DNA from: Escherichia coli
GTDB lineage: Bacteria; Pseudomonadota; Gammaproteobacteria; Enterobacterales; Enterobacteriaceae
NCBI RefSeq assembly: GCF_046105845.1
Contig: NZ_CP151004.1
Strand: one strand, 5' to 3'
Length of the DNA stretch: 64,000 nucleotides
Shown here piece after piece: positions 35,131 to 35,360 of this stretch; position 1 is the stretch's first letter; every line of letters starts with the position of its first letter. The translations under genes and the position numbers were made by a program. The notes under the pieces were generated by a model. That model made no database searches, was not told where the DNA came from, and saw only the letters and a list, made by a program, of their open reading frames with translations.

Positions 35131-35316
35131 GCGCTCTCCCCTCTTGTAGATTGGCAACAGGATAGCAAAACCCCTGCCCGGCCTCGACCTTCTGCACTTT
35201 CATCGCGCACGGATGCATGTTTTATGTGCAACTGTTTTGACCGTTTAGTCCACTTTTTTCCAGATATTTTAGACAACTTAACATTAACACATTAATAACA
35301 TTCACTTTTTAAAAAC

Positions 35317-35332
35317 TGGCATCCGCTTTGCA
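35317..35332 (+). promoter_or_regulatory. sigma54 -24/-12 promoter of the rut operon
   Basis: TGGCAT-ccgct-TTGCA with canonical GG-N10-GC spacing, ~30 bp upstream of rutA ATG; rut operon is known to be NtrC/sigma54-dependent. Confidence 0.7.
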
Positions 35333-35360
35333 AACAAGCCATTACGCGGCTGAAAAGGAT

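Follow-up and report, generated by a model that had tools for sequence, protein, structure and literature searches.

The rutR–rutA control region of Escherichia coli: a known promoter and operator, candidate NtrC sites and a conserved leader element

Introduction

How nitrogen starvation and uracil are read together in the 287 bp between the divergent genes rutR and rutA, and which bases of this spacer do the reading, is the question raised by the locus described here. The region is the well-studied rutR/rutA switch, in which a nitrogen-starvation promoter and the site of a uracil-sensing repressor are combined for the control of pyrimidine breakdown. It is the same locus as the rutAp/RutR-box region of E. 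coli K-12, i.e. the b1012–b1013 spacer (Loh 2006, Shimada 2007/2008, Nguyen Le Minh 2015, Bonocora 2015), with which it shares the putA–rutR–rutA order as well as an identical sigma-54 motif and RutR box; the two differ by a few strain-level base changes outside the core positions, such as T rather than C at 35199, in the spacer of NtrC-like site 1. The biology of the rut promoter and operator is thus already known in E. coli, and a preliminary description of the present DNA, made from its letters, is supported with small corrections. Below, we describe the sites that have been bound in published experiments, then those for which conservation supplies candidates, and finally the beginning of rutA and its leader. 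The features are collected in Table 1.

Table 1. Features of the rutR–rutA region. Positions are those of the window; signed numbers are relative to the predicted rutA mRNA start (+1)
Feature	Position	Strand	Details
rutR CDS	34492..35130	-	212 aa, TetR-family repressor, divergent from rutA; NCBIfam NF011584 / TIGR03613 equivalog, E = 8e-140; named rutR in RefSeq genomes
Extended -10-like motif	35159..35167	-	5'-TGCTATCCT-3', pattern TGnTATnnT; mean identity 0.95
NtrC-like site 1	35193..35209	.	TGCACTTTCATCGCGCA, centre 35201 (about -142); 10/14 consensus positions
NtrC-like site 2	35214..35230	.	TGCATGTTTTATGTGCA, centre 35222 (about -121); 9/14 consensus positions
RutR operator (RutR box)	35237..35252	.	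TTGACCGTTTAGTCCA, centre about -98.5; reverse complement of the bound site
Conserved AT-rich block	35285..35302	.	TTAACACATTAATAACAT, about -50; mean identity 0.90
Sigma-54 promoter of rutABCDEFG	35316..35332	+	CTGGCATCCGCTTTGCA; GG 35318-35319 (-25/-24), GC 35330-35331 (-13/-12)
Predicted rutA mRNA start	35343	+	motif centre 35324 + 19 bp, rule of PMC4591121
Conserved leader element	35353..35381	+	+11 to +39; AAAAGGA-U-A-UGCAGGAUGCA-GCGCCCCGU; 29 nt
Shine-Dalgarno GAGAGG of rutA	35406..35411	+	GAGG invariant in 28-sequence alignment; 6 nt before ATG 35418
rutA CDS, most likely start	35418..36509	+	MKIGVF, 363 aa; ATG 35415 a possible alternative

The locus and the comparative sample

The window, by which we mean the whole stretch of E. 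coli DNA analysed (64,000 nucleotides), carries in order putA, rutR (minus strand) and rutA–rutB–rutC–rutD (plus strand). RutR, RutA, RutB, RutC and RutD are each identified by NCBIfam equivalog models, all above their cut-offs. The stretch 35100–35450 is matched, at 95–100% identity over at least 80% of its length, in 5,419 of 5,426 complete E. coli genomes, and in these matches the flanking genes are always annotated 'rutR' and 'rutA'.

For comparison across genera, orthologous loci were collected by tblastn with RutA, which gave 80 loci from the Enterobacteriaceae and Erwiniaceae, including Escherichia, Enterobacter, Klebsiella, Raoultella, Kosakonia, Leclercia, Buttiauxella, Pantoea, Erwinia and others. 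A divergent rutR is present at nearly all of them. Four elements, namely the sigma-54 promoter, the RutR box and the two NtrC-like sites, have kept both their sequence cores and their spacing throughout the 80 loci. In an alignment of 28 Enterobacteriaceae sequences the mean column identity within these elements is 0.84–0.93, as against 0.62 elsewhere. The same tendency is seen among ten Escherichia sequences, where 9 of 135 positions within elements vary compared with 26 of 152 outside (p = 0.011), and those that do vary within elements fall at degenerate positions.

Motif scanning, by which the preliminary reading was to be checked, discriminates these elements to different degrees: the sigma-54 pattern was found once in the window with 0.21 matches expected, whereas matches to the RutR and NtrC consensus sequences occur at background frequency. 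What supports the elements, rather than motif score, is conservation in every case and, for the RutR and sigma-54 sequences, identity to published bound ones.

The sigma-54 promoter and the predicted start of transcription

A -24/-12 element of the form TGGCAT-N5-TTGCA had been proposed at about 35317–35332, and it is present just as proposed. The sequence TGGCATCCGCTTTGCA occupies these positions on the plus strand with a single mismatch (T for C) to TGGCAC-N5-TTGCW, and its GG and GC dinucleotides are exactly 10 bp apart and point towards rutA. The one match to TGGCAY-N5-TTGCW in the 64 kb has to be read against shuffled sequence, of which 15 in 100 samples contained at least one match. Conservation is stricter: none of the 80 loci departs from TGGCA or TTGC, the overall form being TGGCA(C/T)-N5-TTGC(A/T). 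The 17 letters listed in Table 1 are, letter for letter, the published sigma-54 ChIP-seq site OS10 for rutA (PMC4591121), and genomic SELEX with the RpoN holoenzyme gave a peak within the rutA/rutR spacer (PMC8743547). Occupancy by sigma-54 has in this way been shown in published work for K-12, whose sequence is identical here.

The start of the rutA mRNA is a prediction. The position of about 35343 that had been put forward coincides with the published predicted start, and the 18 bp given there between the predicted start and the K-12 start codon equals 35361 minus 35343 (PMC4591121). The same paper records that the status of the rutA promoter in EcoCyc at that time was 'predicted', and no experimentally mapped rutA start was found in the literature searched.

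The RutR operator

The second element is also a sequence to which binding has been demonstrated. The box in Table 1 (TTGACCGTTTAGTCCA) is the exact reverse complement of the published site TGGACTAAACGGTCAA, which Table 1 of PMC2475637 names 'intergenic (rutA)' and which was located by ChIP-chip, confirmed by EMSA, and agrees with the consensus at 11 of 14 positions. A RutR-box-like string had been reported from the present DNA at about 35236–35251; it is the bound site itself, although its coordinates were one position out. Set against the 16-bp dyad TTGACCAnnTGGTCAA, it matches at 11 of 14 positions and has both A4 and T13. Such a score is at chance level, four matches with up to three mismatches being found in the 64 kb window and 2.9 expected. 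Across the 80 loci, however, A4, C5, C6, T13 and C14 are invariant, G12 is found in 99%, and the box holds the same relative position between rutR and rutA; the box is also without variation among the 10 Escherichia sequences compared.

The rutA–rutR fragment forms a single complex with RutR, with a KD of about 8.6 nM, from which the protein is released by uracil (I0.5 about 9 nM; PMC2952853). The RutR box of carAB P1 (TTGACCATTTGGTCCA) is a close relative: it is the same 16-bp dyad, bound by the same protein with like affinity (KD 8.6 nM for rut and 9.5 nM for carAB), and both boxes lie far upstream of the regulated start. The two differ in their agreement with the consensus (11/14 for the rut box and 13/14 for that of carAB P1; PMC2475637) and in outcome, the effect of RutR being positive (anti-repression) at carP1 and negative here.

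Candidate NtrC sites and a putative second rutR promoter

That NtrC acts at this operon is known from studies of the region as a whole. ChIP-seq with nitrogen-starved cells gave a 94-fold peak at ycdMLKJIHG, an older name of rutABCDEFG, with an 80-bp interval (1073221–1073301) centred on the sigma-54 motif (PMC4066584). A 2023 study by ChIP-exo and RNA-seq describes rutABCDEF as NtrC-activated, and NtrC sites are drawn in the rutAG promoter in a 2024 paper; in none of the open-access papers found are the sequences of NtrC sites printed. The ChIP-seq interval lies some 70–130 bp from the sites proposed below and shows the same promoter-centred offset at glnK and glnH. Since the peaks are centred on the promoter at rut, glnK and glnH alike, they cannot assign NtrC to specific bases.

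The preliminary description had pointed to an NtrC-like site at about 35196–35212. The string is there, three positions away at 35193–35209, and it has a companion that had been missed. With the 17-bp dyad TGCACCAnnnTGGTGCA as reference, neither site stands out by score: 31 matches with up to four mismatches occur in the 64 kb window and 30.9 are expected, and a pair of matches 20–22 bp apart occurs once with 0.42 expected. The assignment to NtrC comes from conservation, not from motif score. In the 80 loci, site 1 has kept TGCAC (91–100% per position) together with G13, C16 and A17, and site 2 has kept G2, C3 and a right half GTGCA (95–99%). The two centres are 21 bp apart here and 20–22 bp apart in 72 of 80 loci, and the rutR–rutA spacer has no better NtrC match elsewhere. 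These features support the two sites, on the same helical face some 100–150 bp upstream of the sigma-54 promoter, as a candidate enhancer. The first descriptions of the promoter and of its NtrC sites are reportedly those of Zimmer 2000, Loh 2006 and Shimada 2007.

The arrangement resembles that of glnAp2 of glnALG, a -24/-12 promoter served by a pair of NtrC dimer sites over 100 bp away on its upstream side, and the enhancer sites of glnAp2 also overlap a sigma-70 promoter. It differs in that the rut sites are much weaker matches to the dyad (10/14 and 9/14), in their separation (21 bp, compared with about 32 bp at glnAp2), and in the TetR-family operator that lies 6 bp from the enhancer at rut, unlike at glnAp2.

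A further conserved block lies between the candidate enhancer and rutR. It has the form TTTG-n-TAT-nn-T and is kept across the Enterobacteriaceae and Erwiniaceae, its variation being confined to the n of TGn and to hexamer positions 4–5, which are positions of low information. The extended -10-like motif within it (TGCTATCCT) is 25–35 nt before rutR, with its -35 position 5 nt from NtrC-like site 1. It looks like a candidate proximal rutR promoter, separate from the published one, which lies upstream of the RutR box; no mention of the proximal motif was met with in the accessible literature. When the spacer was put through a simple sigma-70 scan, no promoter-like site came out, so that neither of the rutR promoter candidates meets a strict consensus.

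This neighbour bears on the assignment of the NtrC-like sites, because they abut the -10-like motif and, if the distal promoter is used, lie in the 5' UTR of rutR; their conservation could therefore serve rutR instead. The two 17-mers would then be signals for rutR expression (an UP or -35-proximal region, or the 5' UTR), and NtrC would bind elsewhere, or weakly and cooperatively. Evidence for this includes the chance level of the motif matches, the centring of the ChIP-seq interval on the promoter, the 5 nt that separate site 1 from the -35 position, and the main table of the genomic SELEX with NtrC alone, from which the rut spacer is absent, rutA appearing only in the RpoN tables (PMC8743547). 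We nevertheless regard it as distinctly unlikely. The conserved parts are the outer half-sites TGCAC and GTGCA and the inner GC, with variable centres of 5–7 nt, as in a dyad; the spacing of 21 bp between centres and the location at -142 and -121 fit a sigma-54 enhancer; the spacer offers no better match; and the operon is both bound by NtrC and dependent on it in vivo. The enhancer reading of the two sites is accordingly the one carried forward here.

Spacing of the sites and the part played by the RutR box

The distances between the elements are conserved in a particular way. Between the end of NtrC-like site 2 and the RutR box there are 5–7 bp in all loci but one (79 of 80). The RutR box and the -24 element are separated by one of three sets of distances, 68 bp (1 locus), 77–81 bp (44 loci) and 88–90 bp (35 loci), so that the classes differ in steps of one helical turn, with the additional turn accommodated between the RutR box and the conserved AT-rich block. 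Neither this stepwise spacing nor the AT-rich, IHF-like block was found described in the accessible literature. Such quantised spacing argues for a loop that would depend on bending of the DNA.

The AT-rich block itself may contribute to the bend. On the minus strand its core (35287–35299, TATTAATGTGTTA) differs from the IHF consensus WATCAANNNNTTR by one mismatch, at the C, and it should be noted that matches of this quality are common in AT-rich DNA. In most of the 80 loci the -24 element is preceded, at 32–35 bp, by the best IHF-like match, which is perfect in three loci (L008, L042 and L057). No report of IHF binding at rutA was found in the literature searched. An AT-rich spacer with an IHF-like block between enhancer and promoter, and spacing that depends on helical phase, are shared with IHF-assisted sigma-54 promoters of the glnHp2 type, from which rut differs in that its IHF site is a candidate only and the block is perhaps part of the distal rutR promoter, which it may overlap.

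These distances also bear on what the RutR box is for. According to the published account the box is downstream of the rutR start site, and four substitutions in it abolish the uracil-sensitive autoregulation of rutR; the operator mutation was tested on rutR-lacZ alone, and the autoregulatory effect is the only one that it demonstrates (PMC4325133). In exponential phase, no rise in rutA mRNA followed from deletion of rutR (PMC10891134), and in one paper the word 'activation' is used of RutR and the rut operon. It can be argued from the mutational and deletion results, and from a location about 99 bp upstream of the rutA start that is odd for a repressor, that the box is there mainly as a roadblock by which rutR regulates itself, and that it hardly, if at all, affects the rutA promoter directly. 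We consider this possible, if unlikely. An effect of RutR would not be visible without NtrC activation, which makes the deletion result uninformative; the absence of a change in rutA without nitrogen limitation fits a switch that needs both activation by NtrC and release of RutR. The gap of 5–7 bp and the distance quantised by helical turns, kept in two families, suggest coupling on the rutA side, and RutR is cited as the rutAG repressor in published papers. An action of RutR on rutA as well as on rutR is preferred here.

A probable two-input switch

Promoters that depend on NtrC, glnAp2 among them, are opened by phosphorylated NtrC, which oligomerises and reaches the closed sigma-54 complex by looping. 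A scheme of this kind, with RutR as a second input, is very probably the explanation of the rutR–rutA control region. RNA polymerase with sigma-54 would wait as a closed complex on the -24/-12 promoter, with the predicted +1 as its start. On nitrogen limitation, phosphorylated NtrC would assemble on the two weak, same-face sites, loop across the AT-rich and probably bent spacer with its IHF-like block, and open the promoter with ATP. Uracil-free RutR would occupy its single operator between enhancer and promoter, 6 bp from NtrC-like site 2, where it would dampen the activation of rutA and repress rutR until released by uracil. The simplest inference is that RutR interferes with the assembly of NtrC or with looping, and acts as a roadblock on rutR transcription. 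RutA would then be translated from ATG 35418 behind GAGAGG, following a leader of about 75 nt.

The start codon of rutA

Three positions have been given for the beginning of RutA. The open-reading-frame track uses TTG 35328, the first three letters of TTGCA in the -12 element; since this position is within the promoter and precedes the predicted +1, it cannot be the start and was rejected. The preliminary description had already held it to be almost certainly wrong. The K-12 RefSeq entry starts at ATG 35361 (382 aa), and PGAP starts at ATG 35418 (363 aa).

For the longer of the annotated forms it can be said that the frame is open from 35361 both in the window and in K-12, that codons 1–7 (MQDAAPR) are kept in many Enterobacteriaceae, and that the 382-aa protein has been crystallised (5WAN); were it the true product, the conserved leader described below would be the start of the coding region. 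The comparison of loci speaks against this. Among 65 loci, 18 have a non-start codon at the position equivalent to 35361, and in no more than 18 are the 19 codons upstream of MKIGVF both open and in frame; in one E. coli strain, SCPM-O-B-8794 (L004), an in-frame stop follows after 12 codons. ATG 35361 has AAGGA only 1 nt before it, compared with the conserved GAGAGG 6 nt before ATG 35418. The TIGR03612 RutA profile aligns from residue 1 of MKIGVF, and this residue is also where each of the 80 tblastn matches begins. The short form is the one that PGAP annotates, and forms of 363/364 aa are folded proteins with crystal structures of their own (6SGG, 6SGL). A true start at 35361 is thus very unlikely, and the 382-aa RutA of K-12 RefSeq and UniProt is probably 19 residues too long.

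The conserved leader element

If RutA begins at MKIGVF, the 19 codons in question belong to the mRNA leader, and part of this leader is conserved. In 65 of the 80 loci an element of the form AAGGA-N-A-UGCAGGAUGCA-GCGCC is kept at the nucleotide level whatever the reading frame. Wherever present, in either of the two families, it is 51–62 nt before the start codon; no description of it was met with in the accessible literature. It is absent from the short leaders (42–45 nt) of some Enterobacter and Buttiauxella. It occurs at one place per E. coli genome, with no paralogous copies. An upstream ORF or an N-terminal extension of RutA was considered and rejected, frame and start codons being inconsistent between loci. 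In the K-12 reference, the element may have been taken for the first codons of RutA.

The element contains two GGA motifs, 35357–35359 and 35366–35368, the second within a UGCA/UGCA mini-hairpin (35362–35372) that is predicted to pair with a probability of about 0.9 in E. coli and of more than 0.5 in 29 of 56 sequences. The E. coli leader as a whole folds no better than shuffled sequences (z = +0.87). A 7-bp outer stem around the element was also considered and rejected: RNAalifold gave no prediction, and pairing probability exceeds 0.5 in only 7 of 56 sequences. In favour of the stem, 83.9% of its cells in the alignment are paired, where slid controls reach no more than 57%, and one pair shows A-U/G-C covariation; the stem was derived from the same sequences that were used to score it. 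An Rfam scan of the leader and spacer returned a spurious Bacteroides sRNA only (E = 1.8; 12.6 bits against a threshold of 174.8).

The leader was also compared with the sites of CsrA/RsmA, in which one GGA is displayed in a short hairpin loop and another lies at a distance of 10–63 nt, either of them overlapping the Shine-Dalgarno sequence. Here the GGA at 35366–35368 is in the hairpin and a second GGA is 9 nt upstream; the A(N)GGA context is not consistently present. The two GGAs do not overlap the Shine-Dalgarno sequence of rutA, which is about 45 nt downstream, and no link between CsrA and rutA was found in the literature searched. At the divergent side of the spacer, the -10-like motif adjoining NtrC-like site 1 invites a comparison with glnAp1, which is repressed by NtrC. 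We offer it only tentatively, as a minority possibility, that the leader element is an undescribed post-transcriptional control element, a site for CsrA or another RNA-binding factor, and that NtrC might repress rutR through the adjoining -10-like motif.

Concluding remarks

Both the sigma-54 promoter and the operator that a reading of the sequence alone had brought out are real, and the correction of the K-12 rutA start codon is supported. The footprint of conservation across genera takes the description of the switch to candidates at the level of bases, namely the NtrC sites, a possible IHF site, a second rutR promoter and the leader element. Only for the leader element and the proximal rutR motif might work at the bench be worth the effort.

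Spacing of the control elements

The distance between the RutR box and the -24 element of the sigma-54 rutA promoter falls into classes of 68, 77-81 and 88-90 bp (window 35237-35332 together with loci L003-L082 of the compared rutR-rutA set), in increments of a single turn of the helix. NtrC site 2 and the RutR box are separated by a constant 5-7 bp. A constant offset is also seen, in most loci, for the IHF-like match, located upstream of the promoter's -24 element by 32-35 bp. Our literature search found no data on IHF at rutA.

Features of the rutR-rutA region and other motif matches in the window
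Feature	Coordinates	Strand	Remarks
NtrC-consensus match TGCTCCAGCCTTGTGCC	35003-35019		3 mismatches; best of whole window
Extended -10-like motif TGCTATCCT	35159-35167	-	fit to TGnTATnnT
CGAC	35185-35188		conserved; accompanies extended -10-like motif
TAAAAT	35266-35271	-	where a distal rutR -10 would fall
AT-rich block TTAACACATTAATAACAT	35285-35302		conserved; IHF-consensus match inside, 1 mismatch
rutA leader block	35353-35381	+	nucleotide-conserved; two GGA motifs; comparison of 80 loci
UGCA-GGA-UGCA mini-hairpin	35362-35372	+	predicted; within leader block
RutR-consensus match TGGACAAAATGGTCAA	62697-62712	+	2 mismatches; A4 and T13 present

Candidate rutR promoters

The rutR promoter has been placed upstream of the RutR box (PMC4325133). 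The putative distal -10 hexamer is poorly kept outside Escherichia and, within that genus, is overlapped by a hot spot of variable sites at 35259-35283, in the stretch that separates the RutR box from the AT-rich block. The extended -10-like motif on the rutR strand is kept across the Enterobacteriaceae and Erwiniaceae, and may represent a second, proximal rutR promoter adjoining NtrC site 1.

Matches outside the intergenic region

The RutR-consensus match is closer to the consensus than is the genuine rutA box; it is located within a Wza-family (GfcE-like) ORF (62540-63700) and is absent from the published RutR ChIP-chip list (PMC2475637). The NtrC-consensus match, which falls within the rutR coding sequence, is probably due to chance.

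The rutA leader and start codon

The leader block, which is single-copy in E. coli and without a match in Rfam, occurs in 65 of the 80 loci, whatever the reading frame, and sits 51-62 nt upstream of the rutA ATG. It is wholly missing from L023, L024, L029, L042, L043, L045, L046 and L049, loci of some Enterobacter (hormaechei group) and of Buttiauxella in which the leader is just 40-45 nt; L039 and L041 carry longer, unrelated insertions in its place. Two starts are annotated for rutA: the upstream ATG (window 35361) in K-12 RefSeq (L001; NP_415532.3), giving 382 aa, and the MKIGVF start (window 35418) in PGAP genomes (e.g. L002), giving 363 aa. The 382-aa form is impossible in L004 (E. coli SCPM-O-B-8794) because its leader has an in-frame stop 12 codons past the K-12-type upstream ATG. 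The comparative evidence favours the 363-aa RutA over the 382-aa form.
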